NCBI GenBank assembly: GCA_951406725.2
Contig: OX597821.1
Span: forward strand, 60,388,001-60,452,000
DNA: 64,000 nucleotides
DNA from: Octopus vulgaris
Lineage: Eukaryota
Direction of reading: 5' to 3'
Within the stretch, counting starts at the first letter, position 1, and every line of letters begins with the position of its first letter. Under the pieces are notes generated by a model that did no database searches, was not told the DNA's origin, and saw only the letters and a list, made by a program, of their open reading frames with translations. Shown one piece after another: positions 34,778 to 63,745 of this stretch. The position numbers and the translations under genes are program-made.

Positions 34778-35897
34778 AAAGAATTTTGTGAAGCATCAGA
34801 CTTCAGCAGAATAAATATGGGTAGTTCAATCTTAGTTAAAGGTCTATAGCATTTGTCCATGTTATGTATAATTAACAACAGGTCAAAGATTTGTTTTCTC
34901 TCATTTTTAATCCATATAATCTCTGTTAATGCAAAGAATTCGCTCCACACTGAAGTGAATGCTAACGATGAAATAAATATTTGGTAACAACCCTCTGGTT
35001 CTTTTCGTTCAACATTGAAGTCCTCCCCACTCCTGTAGCTTTTGCTACATAACATGCAAACACAAACAACTTTTTGGCAGGATTTCAACTCTGAGCTATA
35101 TATAAATCTGCTAAGCTTATTTTATCCTGTTAAAAAGTCTGCATCCATCCCCCATATTTTTTACTAATCTAACTTCCAGTTTGCTAGATTGGTGGATGTA
35201 GTTTTCTTAGTATCAACATTACACAAACATATCAATTTCTCTTTACATTAGTCTCTATGGTGTCAATTAGTATTTGTGCATGCGTGTGTGTGTGTATACC
35301 TCTTTACTCTTTTCTCTCTTTTACTTGTCATTTTACAGTCATTTGACTGTGGCCATGCTGGAGCACCACCTTTAGTCGAGCAAATTGACCCCAGGACTTA
35401 TTCTTTGTAAGCCTAGTACTTATTCTACCAGTCTCTTTTGCCGAACTAAGTTACAGGGACGTAAACACACCAGCATTGGTTGTCAAGCGATGTTGGGGGG
35501 ACAAACAGACACACAAACACACATATATACATATACATGATAAAAGAATTTTGTGAAGCATCAGACTTCAGCAGAATAAATATGGGTAGTTCAATCTTAG
35601 TTAAAGGTCTATAGCATTTGTCCATGTTATGTATAATTAACAACAGGTCAAAGATTTGTTTTCTCTCATTTTTAATCCATATAATCTCTGTTAATGCAAA
35701 GAATTCGCTCCACACTGAAGTGAATGCTAACGATGAAATAAATATTTGGTAACAACCCTCTGGTTCTTTTCGTTCAACATTGAAGTCCTCCCCACTCCTG
35801 TAGCTTTTGCTACATAACATGCAAACACAAACAACTTTTTGGCAGGATTTCAACTCTGAGCTATATATAAATCTGCTAAGCTTATTTTATCCTGTTA
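34778..35897. repeat. 355-bp dispersed direct duplication
   Basis: 34778-35132 equals 35543-35897 (identical translated ORFs in the track); the second copy sits inside a SINE. Confidence 0.95.
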
Positions 35898-45455: not shown

Positions 45456-45489
45456 CAAACCCTTCTCTTCCCTAGTGTTTTACAAACTG

Positions 45490-46950
45490 TTTCATCAGTC
45501 CTAGCATTCTGACCCATGATCTCTGTCTTTTTCAGGCCGAACTCTTGGCAGGCATCCGCCAGGGAGCTGACCAGCCTCTGGAGACCCGGCTGGTTGTGTG
45601 ATGTTAGGGCGGCATCGTCAGCAAAGAGGATCTCTCTGATCAGCACCTGACGGACTTTGGTCTTAGCTCTGAGGCGCGCAAGATTGAACAATCCACCATC
45701 AGCCCTTGTGTGGAGGAACACTCCGTCGTCGGACGTTCTGAAGGCATAGGACAGGACAAGGGAGAAGAAAATTCCGAAGAGCGTCGGCGCCAGAACGCAA
45801 CCCTGTTTCACTCCACTCTGGATGGGGAACGACTCCGAGGGCGATCCGTCAAACTGCACTGTTCCCTGCATACCGTCGTGAAAGGAGGTGATGAGTTTCA
45901 GCAGTCTGGAAGGGCAACCTATCCTACCCAGGAGCGCAAACAGCCCCTCCCTGCTGACTGAGTCGAACGCCTTAGCCAGGTCGATGAAGGCCACGTATAG
46001 GGGCTGTCTCTGTTCTCGACTCTTTTCTTGAAGCTGCCTGAGTGAGAAGATCATGTCGATTGTAGACCTCTCTGCCCTAAAGCCAGACTGAGACTCGGGG
46101 TACACACGCTCTGCAAGCATTTGCAACCTCTTCAGGACCACCCTGGCAAATGCCTTACCGACAGTGCTGAGCAGTGATATGCCCCTGTAATTATTACAGT
46201 CACTTCTGTCCCCTTTGTTTTTATACAGTGTGATGATGTTTGCGTCACGCATATCCTTAGGGACAGAGCCCTCCTCCCAGCACTGACAGAGCAGCTCGTG
46301 GAGATGGCCCAGAAGGGCTGGCTTCCCGCACTGGATGACTTCTGCGGGGATGCCGTCTTGCCCTGGTGCCTTGCCCCGAGCGAGTGAGTCAATTGCTTTG
46401 CTCAGTTCTTCCTTTGTTGGAGGCAGGTCAAGCTCCTCCAGGCAGAGCAGGAATGCCGGCGAGGGCAGACCTGGTGACCACATTCTCAGTGGAGTAGAGG
46501 TTCTGGTAATGCTCGACCCACCTCTCCATCTGCTTCGCTTGGTCCTTGATGACCTCGCCATCCCTGGACTTCAGTGGAGCAACCTTGCTGACAGTGGGCC
46601 CGAATGCTTTCTTCATCCCCCCGTACATCCCTTTCACGTTACCACTGTCAGCACAGCACTGGATGTTCTGGCATAAGTTCTGCCAGTAGATGTTGGCGCA
46701 ACGTCTGGGCGTCGCTTCTGGCTGTTCTCAGAGTAGCCAGGTTCTTTTCTGATGGGTCGCGCTTATAGTTGACCAGTGCTTCCCTCTTGGCAGTAATGAC
46801 AGGCTCCATCTCAGGCAGGTGAGCTTCAAACCAGTCTTGATTTCTCCGCTCCCTCTTTCCTAGGGATGACATGGCTATTCTGCAAGTGGTGTCGCGAATA
46901 AGCTGCCATCTCTCCTCGATGGACGTGGCTGCGTGATCTTTAAGGGCCTC
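45490..46950 (-). mobile_element. RTE-clade LINE RT fragment
   Basis: KAPGQDGIPAE, NYRGISLLS, PESQSGFR, FIDLAKAFDSV, GVKQGCVLAPTLF, DGGLFNLARLRAKTKV, LFADD; frameshifted and truncated at both ends. Confidence 0.95.
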
Positions 46951-47125
46951 CTCCATACATACACACATACATACATACATACATACACGTATACACACAC
47001 ACACAAACGGTCACTATATCTGGAACCATAAAAATCTGCAAGACTTTCTTAAGATTTAAAAGTCGATGAACAAAACAAGATGCCTTCCTTTACAACTTTG
47101 CTACAAAGTAGGTGGCCAGTCGAAA

Positions 47126-47638
47126 TCTATATATATAAAACTGTAGTTGTGTGAGTGTCTGTCCCCTTCGATTTAGATTCCTAGCTACTCCCACATTTTG
47201 CAGTGCAGTTTAACCAAATTCGGGTATCTTATAGTCGTGATTCATATCGAGCCCGTCTGAGTATTAGCGCGCGTCTACGATCAGTCTACGATTTAAAAAA
47301 TAATTTAAGATCATTTTTTATTCTATTTTAATGCATAATTCTTCGTGTGTCGATGGCGGCGGAGTTGGCGTCCATGGTCACACCTGCACCTGTTTGCTTC
47401 TCCCCCTTCTTCCCTCCCTCCTGAAGCTGTGGGGAAGGGAGTGTAAGGAAATCAACGTCGTAAAGCGTTGTCAAGGAGACCAGCGTTCTTTTAGAACAAC
47501 GACTTCATGGCTTGAAGACACCAAAACAGAAATGGGTAAGAAAGCCCGAATTGGCATCTATAAGGGAAGTAACTCTCTAAAAATGCTTATATAGTTATTT
47601 CCCTTACAAACCCGAGCAACGCCGGGCGATACTGCTAG
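47126..47638 (+). mobile_element. Non-autonomous Helitron
   Basis: A|TC...hairpin...CTAG|T. Confidence 0.8.
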
Positions 47639-48702
47639 TTTCTTCTAAAATAAAACGAGAAAAAGAAGAAGGAACACAAACACACACACACACAAACATA
47701 CGCACGCACAAACTCATATACATATTACATATGGTGGGCTTCCAGAGTTTTAGCCAAGCAAAATCATTCACAAGCCATTGGTCAGCCCGGGGCTATTGTA
47801 GAAGAAACTTGCCCAAGCTTAGAGCCTAACAAAATAGTATGTATGACATATTTTGCTTATTGATTTAGGTGCCTGCATAACCGTGAGCGCATAGAAACAG
47901 TCTCTTGGCTCTTTCACCTATGATTCAGTTGGACGGGAGGTCTGACAGCTGTGGGGAGAGAGAAAGGAGGAGAAGGAGGCTGCAGCAGCATTCAGCTGGT
48001 ATTTATTTTCAGCTGAGCTGAGTGGAAAACGTGAAATGATTTACCTTGCTCAAGGACAGAATGCGCCGTCCGGTTCAGAGATTGAAAAAAAGACAAACCC
48101 ACGTTTTTTTTTTCTTTACATAAAAAGTGATCTTATTTCTTTTAAACGTTAGCATGATTTTATGTACGTAAAGATCGAATCGCAATGTAATTACAAGGAC
48201 AATGATAAAAAAAAGGTTGGGGTGGAGTGGATTAAGCAGCAGGAGATGGTGGGTGGGTGGCTGGGGAGAAAAACGGGTTGTACCTCTCTGAGCAAATGAT
48301 ATGATTCTAGAGCCGTTACCGTGGAGAATTGCCAGTGACACTCGTTGCAGCAACCACCCCACCACGCATAGTTAATTTCTCAGGCAGACAACAGCTATCC
48401 CGATTTTGCGGGCGAAATCGGTTGTGCGGGGTTCGCGAACACCTGACGTCTTGACGGCGACAGGTACAAACTGATAGCGGCCGGTTAGGTTCATATAGTT
48501 AATTATTTAATCTTTTATTCTTTTACTTGTTTCAGTCATTTGACTGTGGGCATGCTGGAGCACTGCCTTTAGTTGAAAAAAATCGACCTCAGGACTTATT
48601 CTTTGTAAGTCTAGTAATTACTTTATCAGTTTCTTTAAATATTATTTTTTAGGGAATAAAAATTCCGGCATAACAGAGGTTCAAATTCTTCTCAATGAAG
48701 AA

Positions 48703-48916: not shown

Positions 48917-48917
48917 A

Positions 48918-49448
48918 CTAGCAGTATTGCCCGGCGTTGCTCGGGTTTGTAAGGGAAATAACTATATAAGCATTTTTAGAGAGTTATAGCAAAAAAATGC
49001 ATTAAAAATGGAATAAAAAATGATGATAATTTTTTTTTTAAATCGTTGACTCAGTGTCTTCAAGCCATGAAGTCGTTGTTCTAAAAGAACGCTGGTTTCC
49101 TTCACAACGCATTACGACGTTGATTTCTTTACACTCCCTTCCCCACAGCTTCACGAGGGAGGGAAGGGGGAGAAGCAAACAGGTGCAGCTGTGAGCGTGG
49201 ACGCCAACTCCGCCGCCATCGACACACGATGCATTTTATGCATTAAAATGGAATAAAAAATGATGTAAAATTATTTTTAAAATCGTAGACTCATCGTTGA
49301 CGCGCGCTAATAGTCAGACGGGCTCGATATGAATCACGACTATAAGATACCCGAATTTGGTTAAACTGCACCGCAAAATGTGGGAGGAGTTAGGAATCTA
49401 AATCGAAGGGGACAGACACTCACACAACTAGAGTTTTATATATATAGA
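48918..49448 (-). mobile_element. Non-autonomous Helitron, inverted relative to the 47126 copy
   Basis: Reverse-complement copy with the same termini. Confidence 0.8.
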
Positions 49449-49749
49449 TATATATATCCGACGGGCTTCTTTCAGGTTCCGTCTACCAGATCCACTCACA
49501 AGGCTTCGGTCAGCCCGAGGCTATAGTAGAAGACACTTGCCCAAGGTACCACACAGTGGGACCGAACTCGGAACCATATGGTTGGGAAGCAGTTTATTCT
49601 TTTTACGACATTTATGAGTTCAATTCCTGTTAAAGGAGTTCGAGGTCTCTTTTCATGGAGATAGTGTAGGTTTGGTGCGAGGCGTTTAGGTTGCATGTAA
49701 ATGACGTCTGTATTCAGAAAGTTAAGGAGAAGAGAAGACGTGTATTATT

Positions 49750-52416: not shown

Positions 52417-52540
<124 letters not shown>

Positions 52541-52869
52541 CTTATGTGTCTGTGTTTGTCCTCCCAACATCGCTTGACAACCGATGCTGGTGTGCTTACG
52601 TCTCCGTAACTTAGCAGTTCGGCAAAAGAGAACGATAGAATAAGTACTAGGCTTACAAAGAATAAGTCCTGGGGTCGATTTGCTCGACTAAAGGCGGTGC
52701 TCCAGCATGGCCACAGTCAAATGACTGAAATAAGTAAAAGAATATAAAGAATATAATTACATAATTAATTTTAAATGTAAATCTGGGTTTTCTTTTTCTT
52801 TGGTTTACGAGAGACCTGCAGTTTGCTTGTGCAAGTGCTGTCAATCGAAAGCATCGCATACTGGACGCC

Positions 52870-53674: not shown

Positions 53675-54426
53675 CGTATGTATGTATGTATGTATGTATG
53701 TATGTATGTATGTATGTATGTATGTATGTATATAAACGTGTGCATACACATAGATACCTATGCACATTTCTTATTTCTTTACTACCCACAAGGGGCTACA
53801 CTCAGAGGGGACAAACAAGGACAGACAAGCGGATTAAGTCGATTATATCGACCCCAGTGCGTAACTGGTACTTATTTAATCGACCCCGCAAGGATGAAAG
53901 GCAAAGTCGACCTCGGCAGAATTTGAACTCAGAACGTAGCGGCAGACAAAATACCGCTAAGCATTTCGCCCGGCGTGCTAACGTTTCTGCCTTGCATAGC
54001 GTGGTTATTAACAGAAGGAAGTGCGCTAAGACTAATCAATACAAATAAGGTAGTGTCTCACATAGTTTAAAACAACAGGTTGAGAAAATTCGATCAACAA
54101 TGAGTATCCCCAAAATTTGTTTAAAATTTTTTTATTATTCTTTTTTATCTAAGTAGTGTTTAAAATTAAAAAAGAAAACAAGCAAGGCAAAGAGCGAAGG
54201 CTTTATCCTGGCTGCTCAAAACCAGAGCTTATTGACCCGGAACTATCAAGCCAATGTGATGAAACATGGAGTGGCTGTGTGGTAAGTAGCTTGCTTACCA
54301 ACCACATGGTTCCGAGTTCAGTCCTACTGTGTGCCAACTTTGGCAAGTGTCTTGTACTATAGCCTCGGGCCGACCAAAGCCTTGTGATTGGATTTGGTAG
54401 ACGGAAACTGAAAGAAGCCCGTCGTA

Positions 54427-54493
<67 letters not shown>

Positions 54494-54530
54494 GATCAAA
54501 ATAAAATAAAAACATGATGCGAAGGATTCA

Positions 54531-54606
54531 GCGGTACATATGTTTCGGGCCTTTATTAGACATTTATAACAATGCATAATGTATGTCTGTGGCCTTCTTC
54601 AGCCGC
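54531..54606 (-). ncRNA. Type I minimal hammerhead ribozyme (mirror copy in left arm)
   Basis: Exact reverse complement of 57514-57589 (gcggtacatatgtttcgggcc...ggccttcttcagccgc). Confidence 0.75.
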
Positions 54607-57513
54607 GCACAACAGCTTCCACAAGGACATGTGTTACATCAAAAATTCTTGGTTGGGGATGCAAATCCTCTCATTCACGTACGACATAATGCGGCAGCAG
54701 CATAGAATTGAAGCGTCCATCTCTTTCTTCTCCCAATGTAGAATGAGGAAAATTGGATGTTGAGGTAATGTAAATAAATAAATACATATATAGAGGTGAA
54801 GATGGAGGGGCGAGAGTTCGGGACGAGGGATAAAAAATGTATAAAAAGTGTAAGTATAGAATAATATAAAAATGTAGAGGATAAAGATATAAAGAGTTGT
54901 AAGGAGATGTAAAGGGGGTATAAAGAAATATAAAGAAATATAAATAAATGTAAAGGCATAAGGTTATAAAGTAAAAATAGAAATAGAAATAAAAGTAAAA
55001 AAACCTGATAAAAACATGATAAAAGTGTAAAAGAATGTAAAGATAAGGGATGTATATAGGTTACGGACCAAGCATGGTGGTCAGGAGATTGATAAAATTT
55101 AGTTGTAGAATTGTCAGTAAATCAACAGTTTCGTCTGGGGACCTAATGCGTTGTAAATCAGAGCTGATGAGCATTTAATCTGGTTCCTTGAATTAAATGG
55201 ACTTCTAGTACATACATATCATCATGGATACATACACCCACATACACGCGTACATATACGCCTCCAAGCCTATAAGCATACACACGCACTCGTGTGTAAA
55301 CACGTACATAAACACACACGCACCCACACGCACGCGCGTACACACACATACATACAACAGAATATCCGCATGTATACGCGGACATTATACGCGTACACAC
55401 TCACATGTATATACGCGCGCCCATCACTACATACACACACGTATATGCCCACGCATCTAGGTCTAGGTATAAGATATTAAAGGATGTGTATAAGAACGTA
55501 TGTAAAGAATCCCGTACTCATGTCTATACGTGCACGCACACACGGCTGTGTGTCCGTATGTGCGTGCACCTATACACTCATATACACACACAGAGACAGA
55601 GACACACGCGCACATGGGTATAGCTATAAGATATCGAAGTATGCATGTACATATATGCGCGTGCATATGTATGTATGCGCATACACACGTACGCGGACGC
55701 TCGTATAGTCAAAAAGTGGATCCATAGGTAAGTAAATAAACGTATATAGAGGTGTAAAGCGATAAGTTATGGGTAAGAATGAGGGTAAGGGTAAAGATTA
55801 GAAATAAAAAATACAGTATAAAATAAGAAATACAATGTAATAGTTAGAAATGAAATATAAGAATTATAAAAATTATAAGAGTTAAGGTAAGGGATGAAAA
55901 TAAAAATGAGAATAAATGGAAGTAGAATAAAAGTAAAAATAAAATTAAAAATAAAGATAAATGGAAGTAGGATAAAAGTAAAAATAAAAGTAAAAATAAA
56001 AATAAAAATAACATAAAATAAGATAAAAATATAATTTGGTAAAGTTTAACATGAGATGAAGGTGGTTGAAAGTTAGAGGTGTGTGTTAAACGTAGGGGCG
56101 GGCGGGGGGAACTGAAAATTGGAAGGGTGGGAAGTGGAGTTTGGCGTTGTGCGTTCAACATCCGAGTTAGAAATGTGAAAGGGTATAGATATAGGGAATT
56201 AAAGAGACTACATAGGGAGGATATGGGTGTAGGAGAAGAAATATTTAGGGAAAAGAAGTCATATATGGGAGACAAAATATTACATTGTATTTCTTATTTT
56301 ATACTGTATTTTTTATTTCTAATCTTTACCCTTACCCTCATTCTTACCCATAACTTATCGCTTTACACCTCTATATACGTTTATTTACTTACCTATGGAT
56401 CCACTTTTTGACTATACGAGCGTCCGCGTACGTGTGTATGCGCATACATACATATGCACGCGCATATATGTACATGCATACTTCGATATCTTATAGCTAT
56501 ACCCATGTGCGCGTGTGTCTCTGTCTCTGTGTGTGTATATGAGTGTATAGGTGCACGCACATACGGACACACAGCCGTGTGTGCGTGCACGTATAGACAT
56601 GAGTACGGGATTCTTTACATACGTTCTTATACACATCCTTTAATATCTTATACCTAGACCTAGATGCGTGGGCATATACGTGTGTGTATGTAGTGATGGG
56701 CGCGCGTATATACATGTGAGTGTGTACGCGTATAATGTCCGCGTATACATGCGGATATTCTGTTGTATGTATGTGTGTGTACGCGCGTGCGTGTGGGTGC
56801 GTGTGTGTTTATGTACGTGTTTACACACGAGTGCGTGTGTATGCTTATAGGCTTGGAGGCGTATATGTACGCGTGTATGTGGGTGTATGTATCCATGATG
56901 ATATGTATGTACTAGAAGTCCATTTAATTCAAGGAACCAGATTAAATGCTCATCAGCTCTGATTTACAACGCATTAGGTCCCCAGACGAAACTGTTGATT
57001 TACTGACAATTCTACAACTAAATTTTATCAATCTCCTGACCACCATGCTTGGTCCGTAACCTATATACATCCCTTATCTTTACATTCTTTTACACTTTTA
57101 TCATGTTTTTATCAGGTTTTTTTACTTTTATTTCTATTTCTATTTTTACTTTATAACCTTATGCCTTTACATTTATTTATATTTCTTTATATTTCTTTAT
57201 ACCCCCTTTACATCTCCTTACAACTCTTTATATCTTTATCCTCTACATTTTTATATTATTCTATACTTACACTTTTTATACATTTTTTATCCCTCGTCCC
57301 GAACTCTCGCCCCTCCATCTTCACCTCTATATATGTATTTATTTATTTACATTACCTCAACATCCAATTTTCCTCATTCTACATTGAGAGAAGAAAGAGA
57401 TGGACGCTTCAATTCTATGCTGCTGCCGCATTATGTCGTACGTGAATGAGAGGATTTGCATCCCCAACCAAGAATTTTTGATGTAACACATGTCCTTGTG
57501 GAAGCTGTTGTGC

Positions 57514-57589
57514 GCGGCTGAAGAAGGCCACAGACATACATTATGCATTGTTATAAATGTCTAATAAAGGCCCGAAACATATGTACCGC
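57514..57589 (+). ncRNA. Type I minimal hammerhead ribozyme
   Basis: Stem I GCGG/CCGC; core CTGAAGA 57518-57524; stem II GGCC/GGCC (A.C at its base) extended by AGACAT/ATGTCT; GAAA 57574-57577; palindromic stem III ACATATGT; predicted cleavage after GUA at 57585. Confidence 0.75.
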
Positions 57590-57708
57590 TGAATCCTTCG
57601 CATCATGTTTTTATTTTATTTTGATCAATTTACTCCACCACCTACACCACCAAACGGTATACACAGGTGCTTATAATTATCAAGTACTCACCCCGAATTT
57701 CTATACTC

Positions 57709-57802
<94 letters not shown>

Positions 57803-58024
57803 GTGTGTATGTTTGTGTGTCTGTGTTTGTCCCCCCAACATCGCTTGACAACCGATGCTGGTGTGTTTACGTCCCCGTAACTTAGCGGTTCGGCAAAAGG
57901 CACCGATAGAATAAGTACTGGGCTTACAAAGAATATGTCCTGGGGTCGATTTGCTTGACTAAAAGCAGTGCCCCAGTATGGCCACAGTCAAATGACTGAA
58001 ACAAGTAAAAGAGTAAAGAGTAAG

Positions 58025-59397
58025 AGAGACCCAAAGATGAAATAGTGGACCACCTAATCTCTGGGTGTAAGGTTTTAGCAGGAAGTAAATGTAACAGTTC
58101 TTTGGGACTTTCCAGTATGTACAGATATTGTTGCGAAAGACAAAAGCAATAAAGTCTGTTTATTGAGTGACATGAGCATACCCTGTGATTATAATATCTC
58201 GGCAAAAGAATTTCATTAGCTCAGAACATGTAAAGGTTTGCTAATCGAAATCGAAAAGATGTGGTATCTCAAGACGGTTACGATGCCAGTGATTGTAGGA
58301 GAATTTGGAATGATCAAAAAAGGAACTGAAAATGATTTGCGAATCTCAGAAAAGATCTATCAAAATAACAAACACAGTACCTAAACAACTCTGGACTTCT
58401 ATAACGACTGAAAAGGTTACCCTGTCACTGTAAAAACTAGACAACTAGAAGTCACCCGGGCACGACAAGATCCTCAACTTCTGGTTAAAATATCTAACAG
58501 GGATACATAAAACGCTGGCTAAGAAATTTAGCAGAGCCAGAGACAATGCCTGAATGGCTCACGGAAGGGAAAACTATCATAATTCCTAAATCTACTGACA
58601 CGGTAAACCTACAAAATTACAGACTGGTATCTTGTCTCGCTATAATTTACAAAGCCTTTACTGCAATAATATCGCAGAGAATGGGCAAACATCTGGAAGA
58701 AAACTACCTGTTTCCAGAAGAACAGAAGGGATGCTACAAGAGCTCATACGGCTGTAAAGATCAGCTACTGATCAATAAAGCCATAACTGAAGACAGCTGC
58801 AGAAAGAAGAAGAGTCTAAGTATGGCCTGGAACAATTACCGAAACACTAGCCACGAACAAGGTAGCACCAATAATCATAAAATATATAAAACATTCCATG
58901 AATAAATGGCAAACAGTGCTACAGCTCCAGACAAAAGTGGGACTCATAAAAACCAAAACTATCCTCATTAGAAGAGGAATATTCCAGAGTGACACGCTCT
59001 CTCCACTCCTTTTCTGCTTGGCACTGACACATTTATCTGACATGCTAAACAGAACTGGATGTGGATACAACTGTTACAGCAAAACAATCAGTTACCTCTT
59101 ATATATGGATGATCTTAAAACTGTATGCTACAAATGATTAACAGCTGAAACATTACTACAGACAGTACCATGGATTTACCAAAGAAATAAACATGGAATT
59201 TGGTTTGGAAAAATATGCCGAGGCAAGCCTGAAAAGAGGAAAACTAATTTAGAGTAACAACATCACATTAGATAAAGCAAATGAAATAAGAGAATTAGAT
59301 CATAGCTAGACATGCAAAAACTTAGGAATTAATGGACTAGATACGATAAAACATATACAAATGAAAGAGAGGCTAAGAAAGGAATACTACAGACGAG
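58025..59397 (+). mobile_element. R4/Dong-like (RLE-type) non-LTR retrotransposon fragments
   Basis: PEWLTEGKTIIIPK, EEQKGC, YGCKDQLLINK, RGIFQSDTLSPLLFCLAL and LLYMDDLK, preceded by C-terminal pieces VDHLISGCKVLA and IEIEKMW..PVIVG. Confidence 0.85.
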
Positions 59398-60221: not shown

Positions 60222-60708
60222 TATATAAATAAATGAAAGAATGTAGTCGAACGAAGATGTTAACAAAATTCCTTTACTCTCGACATATGTTTGTTTTGTT
60301 TACCATGTAGGCAGTCATCGAAATTTTTGTTTGTCTTGTTGTCGAGAGAGGCTCCCTTTCTTTCCTGATGAGAAGATTGCATAATGCACCCTTTATTCCT
60401 TTGGAATGAAAACATGTTGTCTTCGAAACATATGTCGAGAGTAAAGGAATTTTGTTAACATCTTCGTTCGACTCCATTTTATTTTTTAAAATTTTATTTT
60501 ATCTAGTTTCAGCTCACGAGCTGTGGCCATGCTGGAGCACCGCCATTCTTTCATTTATTCATATACAACACACAAATTTCTGCACATGAACCCGGAGTTT
60601 CTACCCTTGGACAGGTCGCTTCAACCGTGTTTCTGACGTGAATTTGCTACCCAGGTTTCGGTTAAACGAATTTTCCATGCTGAGGATAAACATAGGATAA
60701 TTCATTCA

Positions 60709-63332: not shown

Positions 63333-63745
63333 AGGCGCAGGAGTGGCTGTGTGGTAAGTAGCTTGCTAACCAACCACATGGTTCCGGGTTCAGTCCCACT
63401 GCGTGGCATCTTGGGCAAGTGTCTTCTGCTATAGCCCCGGGCCAACCAATGCCTTGTGAGTGGATTTGGTAGACGGAAACTGAAAGAAGCCTGTCGTATA
63501 TATGTATATATATATATATGTGTGTGTTTGTGTGTTTGTGTTTGACCCCCTAGCATCGCTTGACAACCGATGCTGGTGTGTTTACGTCCCCGTAACTTAG
63601 CGGTTCGGCAAAAAAGAGACCGATAGAATAAGTACTGGGCTTACAAAGAATAAGTCCCGGGGTCGAGTTGCTCGATTAAAGGCGGTGCTCCAGCATGGCC
63701 GCAGTCAAATGACTGAAACAAGTAAAAGAGAAAAAGAGAGAAAGA
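63333..63745 (+). mobile_element. SINE family A, young full-length copy
   Basis: Same head, body and tail with CpGs retained. Confidence 0.9.

Follow-up and report, generated by a model that had tools for sequence, protein, structure and literature searches.

Craig et al. 2021 (PMC8557442) characterise Penelope-like elements (PLEs) of the Hydra clade by the motifs DKT, CxCX5C, CxxC and CxH and by the lack of CCHH, and list one member, Penelope-13_HM, with a 5'-truncated inverted copy. The sequence described here is an insertion in a 64,000-nt stretch of the Octopus vulgaris genome (assembly GCA_951406725.2, contig OX597821.1, positions 60,388,001 to 60,452,000; hereafter the window), and its parent element is like that clade in having a single frame with an RT plus a GIY-YIG nuclease at its C terminus, DKT and CxCX5C without CCHH, CxxC and CxH near the end of the frame, a hammerhead near the 3' end, and (TA)n flanks. 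The parent differs from the clade in length (a unit of 4.7 kb, of which 2.0 kb are 3' UTR, whereas the clade's elements are 'generally under 3 kb', a trait that is typical and not diagnostic), in having RWA in place of RWK, in a loop II of about 40 nt where the listed Hydra motifs have 3–10 nt, and in a tail of about 80 nt instead of 30–40. Judged by eye against the same source, Hydra-1_Obim belongs to a different family, with another N-terminus and another hammerhead.

Insertions of endonuclease-bearing Penelope elements that combine inverted pLTRs with a one-sided tail have been described before, and PMC3846280 and PMC8557442 (fig. 2 legend) give them the same build as here: a 5'-truncated copy placed head to head, with a tail that is the start of the next unit. 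Compared with these published insertions, the present one has long arms, which are due to the long 3' UTR, a junction without a palindrome, and a target duplication that is unreadable in a microsatellite. How Penelope elements make inverted repeats and tails is presented as an open question in PMC8557442.

Biochemical data come from PAc, a Poseidon element from Anolis (Frangieh et al. 2024, PMC11167929). In that work, the Penelope protein cut and extended both target strands in vitro, using two internal start sites that bound the tail; it is predicted to form a dimer, and hammerhead cutting was dispensable. The octopus family shares with PAc the two 3' end sites on either side of the tail and the AT-rich target. 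PAc, however, belongs to another clade and has a shorter tail. In the octopus family both start sites are in the leader, ahead of the ATG, with 1–4 nt of likeness to the TA flank. The rule of one site per strand described below is not among the PAc results in the parts of that paper covered here, which report no strand difference in start site.

The hammerhead agrees with the minimal metazoan PLE hammerheads of Cervera and de la Pena (2014, PMC4209133) in being of type I, with a 4-bp helix I, an extra base between positions 9 and 10.1 and a palindromic helix III; its loop II is longer, and the motif is known here from sequence. Opposite-strand hammerhead pairs in Schistosoma were already noted in that paper. 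Non-LTR retrozymes (10.64898/2026.07.22.740005), which are related to PLEs, likewise carry a type I hammerhead and no protein. They are, however, tandem direct repeats with one ribozyme per unit, whereas the present unit is unrepeated and its two motifs lie on opposite strands. A retrozyme identity was rejected on these two grounds.

Structure of the insertion

An earlier note on this DNA had proposed a foldback element, with two 1353-bp inverted arms that differ by one substitution and enclose a 435-bp spacer. Alignment bore out these coordinates. Copies of the family stop at two fixed sites about 80 nt apart, site A before the tail and site B after it, and these sites mark the outer ends of the two pieces of the unit (54490–57713). 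The unit and its flanks consist of the following features.

54268–54432, plus strand: 5' half of the host SINE, the target (54268–54447 matches the uninterrupted copy at 63340–63519 at 92%)
54433–54489, no strand assigned: left (TA)n flank, read from the sequence
54490–56278, minus strand: left piece, 1789 nt; 5'-truncated parent 3' UTR that ends at site A, tail absent
54490–55842, minus strand: left arm of the inverted repeat, 1353 nt
54531–54606, minus strand: type I hammerhead motif found by descriptor, predicted cut at 54535
55843–56277, minus strand: spacer, 435 nt; the part of the left piece missing from the right piece
56275–56278, no strand assigned: inner junction, overlap of 1 nt exact (4 nt with one mismatch)
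56278–57713, plus strand: right piece, about 1436 nt; a 5'-truncated 3' UTR, shorter than on the left, with the tail attached and its end at site B
56278–57630, plus strand: right arm of the inverted repeat, 1353 nt
57514–57589, plus strand: type I hammerhead motif found by descriptor, predicted cut after 57585
57631–57713, plus strand: tail, which corresponds to the initial ~83 nt of the leader (152 nt) ahead of the ATG in tandem and full-length copies
57714–57743, plus strand: (TC)15 run directly 3' of site B
57744–58020, plus strand: (TA)14, (TG)n and the 3' half of the host SINE (92% match to 52473–52749)

The arms are 99.9% identical, with a single difference at 54733/57387. In a BLAST/repeat search they reach 1356 nt with two mismatches, the extension being due to chance. 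While the 435-bp size of the spacer stood, its status as a separate part did not, since it is continuous with the left piece. At other loci the reverse complement of the spacer runs directly into the arm, the left piece has an unbroken 93–98% match to other copies across all 1789 nt, and the loose ends of contigs at 56278 run on into parent sequence. The spacer is thus, by these alignments, the unduplicated continuation of the left minus-strand piece. The inner junction has one exact match in the genome, namely the window itself. The tail is confined to the right arm, as had been claimed, and there the match to the parent extends up to about 57713.

The unit splits a SINE at its internal microsatellite, which agrees with the proposed insertion into SINE (TA)n: the two halves are 92% like other copies and are in register with each other. 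The host SINE has putative tRNA-like A and B boxes. Frame scans detected no RT-like frame inside the unit, again as claimed; the window has no coding frame of the element only because both pieces are truncated within the long 3' UTR.

The parent element

In other copies, an RT and C-terminal GIY-YIG frame lies upstream of the same 3' UTR, which supported the Penelope-like origin that the earlier note had proposed. The parent unit measures 4684 nt and comprises a 152-nt leader (the distance from the arm end to the ATG), an 836-aa frame with RT and C-terminal GIY-YIG, and a 2022-nt 3' UTR with the hammerhead near its end. Copies attached to such an ORF, which that note had proposed to look for, therefore exist, and the whole 836-codon frame is found in five of the 15 listed ATG-bearing copies (L121, L122, L123, L125 and L130).

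A Pfam scan of the parent frame returned neither an RT nor a GIY-YIG domain; its sole match, a weak one to Desmo_N, fell short of the cut-off. A PDB sequence search with this frame gave no match. The domain assignment rests on motifs and homologues: proteins with PF26215, PF28514 or PF01541 are among the homologues to which the RT and nuclease motifs can be aligned. There were 1377 homologues among 7989 scored candidates, and those with a name were from marine invertebrates. The parent protein has DKT instead of DKG, its linker is of the form CxCX5C, CCHH is missing, and both CxxC and CxH are present; its RT motif resembles Hydra sequences in the PMC8557442 supplement. At the RWK position the parent family has RWA and its homologues have RWK, RWR or RWQ. 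A TA run lies within 30 nt of 74 of the 76 A ends and 69 of the 74 B ends, and the family includes pLTRs from partial tandems, inverted 5'-truncated copies and the one-sided tail. From its sequence, the parent is an autonomous, endonuclease-bearing Penelope-like element with Hydra-clade motifs. Clades Naiad and Nematis/Neptune were considered and dropped on the clade features given in PMC8557442. The family is a new, young one of a known clade, and its architecture has already been described.

One full-length copy with a whole frame (L123:2938–3015) starts and ends at site A and represents an exact unit-length insertion. In another family copy, a 1549-codon open frame is inserted (L037:2503–7149). 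Older relatives of the family, with 73–82% DNA identity, occur at L201 (L109), L202 and L204. The L201 hammerheads have kept the core and stems, and their loop II is longer; in L202 a long insert rich in Asn precedes the nuclease, and L204 carries a more distant Hydra-like frame.

Copy number and recurrence of the inverted layout

To establish how common the sequence is, the last 331 nt were used as a query against the octopus's own genome. This yielded 1696 candidates, and the 40 that were scored were all 98–100% identical. A 28-mer from the hammerhead had 1547 exact genomic matches (771 + 776), compared with none for the control. The first 100 listed matches of this 28-mer fell into 70 clusters: 28 outward-facing inverted pairs that span 145–5141 nt, 41 single motifs and one inward-facing pair. 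Extrapolating from 1547 matches at 70 clusters per 100, we arrive at roughly 1,100 family insertions.

Junctions differ across 44 pairs, with the exception of one duplicated locus. Three loci (L120, L125 and L126) have one 5' junction and a 3' flank in common; a mobile inverted unit was considered for this common junction and rejected in favour of segmental duplication, since the flank is shared as well. The left arm of L126, together with its flank, duplicates the right side in inverted orientation, so that a long inverted insertion lies at a rearrangement. The earlier note had raised the question of whether the inverted layout recurs with the same breakpoints. The layout does recur, in 28 of the 70 clusters, but the breakpoints scatter, and inverted pairs are therefore a common outcome of insertion and not a mobile foldback unit. 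The suggested non-autonomous family was contradicted by the RT/GIY-YIG frame of the parent, by inner breakpoints that do not recur, and by the junction being unique in the genome. The locus itself is ordinary transposon debris.

Inverted insertions pair two different end sites

Ends were located at 158 other places, where 76 were of type A, 73 of type B, eight were read-through and one was of another type. Unpaired ends were split 32 to 32 between A and B. Among the 43 inverted pairs, 41 were A+B, one combined A with a further end, one was A+A and none was B+B; in 42 of 43 inverted insertions, one end thus lay before the tail and the other after it. As 17 of the 43 pairs had been picked with a tail-bearing query, the other 26 were tested apart, and 25 of these were A+B (P = 4e-7 versus a coin toss). 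The sole A+A case is L126, which duplicates L120 in rearranged form and has a flank in common with it. Four further short inverted partners were all of the complementary type, and at 20 further loci eight of the nine inverted partners were A, the remaining one having no assigned end type. No second piece was found at 57 of the 61 resolved unpaired ends, and the idea that every insertion consists of an A piece and a B piece was ruled out by these single ends.

The longer piece was tail-less in 14, tail-bearing in 21 and equal to its partner in eight of the 43 pairs, with the window counted. Junction overlap ranged from -25 to +12 nt in 40 of 44. Across the 17 insertions with arms >930 nt, the median arm difference was 0.33% within and 3.6% between insertions, and the partner arm was the nearest sequence in only 13 of the 17. 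Two substitutions and a 2-nt deletion are private to the window's arms, being found in none of 32 other arms. The earlier view of a very recent insertion of an inverted pLTR with a one-sided tail was supported. Target-site duplications are unreadable in the (TA)n flanks, and short flank words were shared in L005 and L049 only.

Proposed mechanism and alternative explanations

We consider it very probable that the locus is a single recent insertion of an autonomous Hydra-motif Penelope-like retrotransposon, consisting of two 5'-truncated 3'-end copies head to head, and likely made by priming reverse transcription twice, once per cut target strand. In this scheme, the template would be an RNA that reads through past the hammerhead into the leader of the next unit. 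The protein, possibly as a dimer, would nick both strands of the TA-rich target, and one cDNA would start at B and the other at A, on the same RNA or on RNAs of the same donor. Both cDNAs would stop early, after 1436 and 1789 nt, short of the coding frame, and the joining of their ends would involve hardly any microhomology or none. Copy-back along the longer piece cannot yield a tail on the shorter one, and two priming events on the RNA of one donor therefore fit best. From the end counts we infer that the two events are coupled. The variants shared by the arms could also come from gene conversion between them.

An element of the same identity could alternatively have gained its inverted arm through self-priming or copy-back, the template being either the first cDNA or an antisense strand; endonuclease resolution would then have left the tail. 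For rotifer Penelope elements, palindromes seen at inverted junctions led to such a proposal (PMC3846280), and it would explain both the near-identical arms and the equal piece lengths in eight of 43 pairs. An arm made in this way cannot hold sequence that is absent from the first arm, yet in 14 of 43 pairs, the window among them, it is the shorter piece that bears the tail, and most junctions have an unduplicated spacer and not a palindrome. We therefore regard copy-back as improbable. An artefact, either a foldback read or a misassembly, would also produce arms that are 99.9% identical; the locus rests on one assembly, and no listed contig from four other DNA runs spans the inner junction. 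Nevertheless, the asymmetric ends follow the rule of the family, the arms differ at one site, the SINE continues in register to the left and to the right of the unit, and the same build, with small arm differences, is seen in 43 other inverted pairs, which makes an artefact highly improbable.

We give hardly any credence to the idea of a non-autonomous foldback element, whether one mobile as a whole or one retained as a hairpin under ribozyme control (a switch, siRNA source or ADAR substrate). The lack of a coding frame in the unit, the intact cores of both hammerheads and the 1.35-kb duplex that a read-through RNA would form are all compatible with such an element. It is largely refuted by the junction that is unique in the genome, and the breakpoints scatter, the whole sequence is parent 3' UTR, and no host gene was seen in the 114 window frames scanned. 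Intact cores are moreover expected in so young a copy, as they were kept in 138 of 152 sampled motifs, a sample selected for likeness. The insertions of this family record how Penelope elements make inverted repeats and tails, and the family could serve as a Hydra-clade substrate in the in vitro assay that exists for the Poseidon element.

Simple repeats at the primed end

A CT run is absent from 11 listed SINE microsatellites of the window, and the (TC)15 run next to site B was likely added at insertion. Elsewhere, (CT)n follows five of 74 B ends and none of 76 A ends, and for one B position searched genome-wide there were 50 CT-type versus 761 TA-type ends. In 20 of these 50 CT loci the run had 6–25 units, and the other junction, as located, lacked a CT/GA run in 20 of 20, five of the 20 not being traced to their true end. 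TA runs were compared in 52 non-inverted copies, leaving out 12 (10 with an adjoining inverted piece and two unresolved). At the 3' (primed) end these runs had a median of 35 nt and were absent in one of the 52 copies, and at the 5' end they had a median of 9.5 nt and were absent in 18 of the 52.

Addition of repeats by the RT at priming would explain both the CT and the TA runs. They would equally be explained by slippage at a later time, or by a need for long TA on the primer side combined with its loss opposite. More tentatively, Hydra-type Penelope enzymes may insert by a coupled two-primer reaction in which each cut strand would be assigned one of two RNA start sites and the RT, stuttering at first over a template of 2 nt, would extend the primer by (CT)n or (TA)n much as telomerase does. 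The pairing of one A with one B end in 42 of 43 pairs, the CT runs after B ends and the longer TA runs at the primed end speak for such a reaction; we consider it possible but rather doubtful. If it is true, the element itself would have made part of what is reported as a '(TA)n target preference'.

Hammerhead motifs and the predicted hairpin

The claim of a hammerhead in each arm held, as our own type I descriptor returned both. This descriptor was written after the motif was known, and its false-match rate was seven in 100 shuffled windows and one in 2000 shuffled arms. On the window it gave three motifs, the two in the arms and an unrelated one at +60361–60440. The motif at 57514–57589 has a 4-bp stem I, an extra A after the first core box, a long stem/loop II and a palindromic stem III. 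The lowest-energy fold of the 76-mer has the three-stem shape and is no stabler than shuffles (z -0.17). An Rfam scan listed 48 matches at E<=1, none of them to a hammerhead, which the long loop II probably explains. Core and stem I were kept in 138 of the 152 complete motifs in the sample, which was selected for likeness; both window motifs have intact cores and lack 2 nt of the commonest form. We infer that the hammerheads are passengers of the pLTR.

Each strand of the unit carries one sense ribozyme, with no dimer partner in cis, and whichever side a read-through RNA came from, its antisense arm would be transcribed first. Predicted energies were -12.7 kcal/mol for the hammerhead's own fold, -9.0 kcal/mol for the stem III dimer helix and -143 kcal/mol for the antisense-arm duplex. 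Minimal PLE hammerheads are described as inactive as monomers and weak as dimers in PMC4209133, and the PAc hammerhead needed protein according to PMC11167929. In a read-through transcript, the long duplex would most likely trap the sense motif and leave it uncut. The self-cleavage switch suggested in the earlier note is thus unlikely on these predictions, because the antisense arm would be made first and pair far more strongly than the motif folds, each strand holds a single sense motif, and minimal motifs are inactive as monomers.

A role as siRNA source or ADAR substrate would be plausible only with read-through of the locus, and would then apply equally to hundreds of sister insertions. 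No run recorded as RNA was listed as containing the sequence. Four runs presumed to be RNA hold family contigs whose copies of origin are indistinguishable, and these contigs carry no weight here for expression or editing; two of them cross the tail, the leader and the start of the frame and show no intron-like joint. The family seeds the genome with several hundred near-perfect hairpins, which could feed dsRNA pathways where they are transcribed.

Neighbouring and related sequences

The scan of 114 window frames revealed no host gene, although short exons would escape such a scan, and gave only three matches, all to LINE-type RT. These LINE-type RT fragments (Pfam RVT_1), at 58498–59134 and 45458–46570, are unrelated to the unit.

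The unrelated hammerhead at +60361–60440 lies in a region (60222–60565) with short inverted copies of the motif's 3' part, of 53 and 22 nt, just upstream. By its sequence, this region is an older Penelope-type inverted remnant, 2.6 kb away from the unit. Many different type I hammerheads of other families were also observed in the flanks of L026, L033, L042, L048, L103, L107, L114, L123, L132, L146 and L181, several of them as opposite-strand pairs. The window additionally contains a 0.5-kb inverted pair with 87% identity (47125–47639 and 48917–49449) and a 355-bp perfect direct repeat (34778–35132 and 35543–35897).
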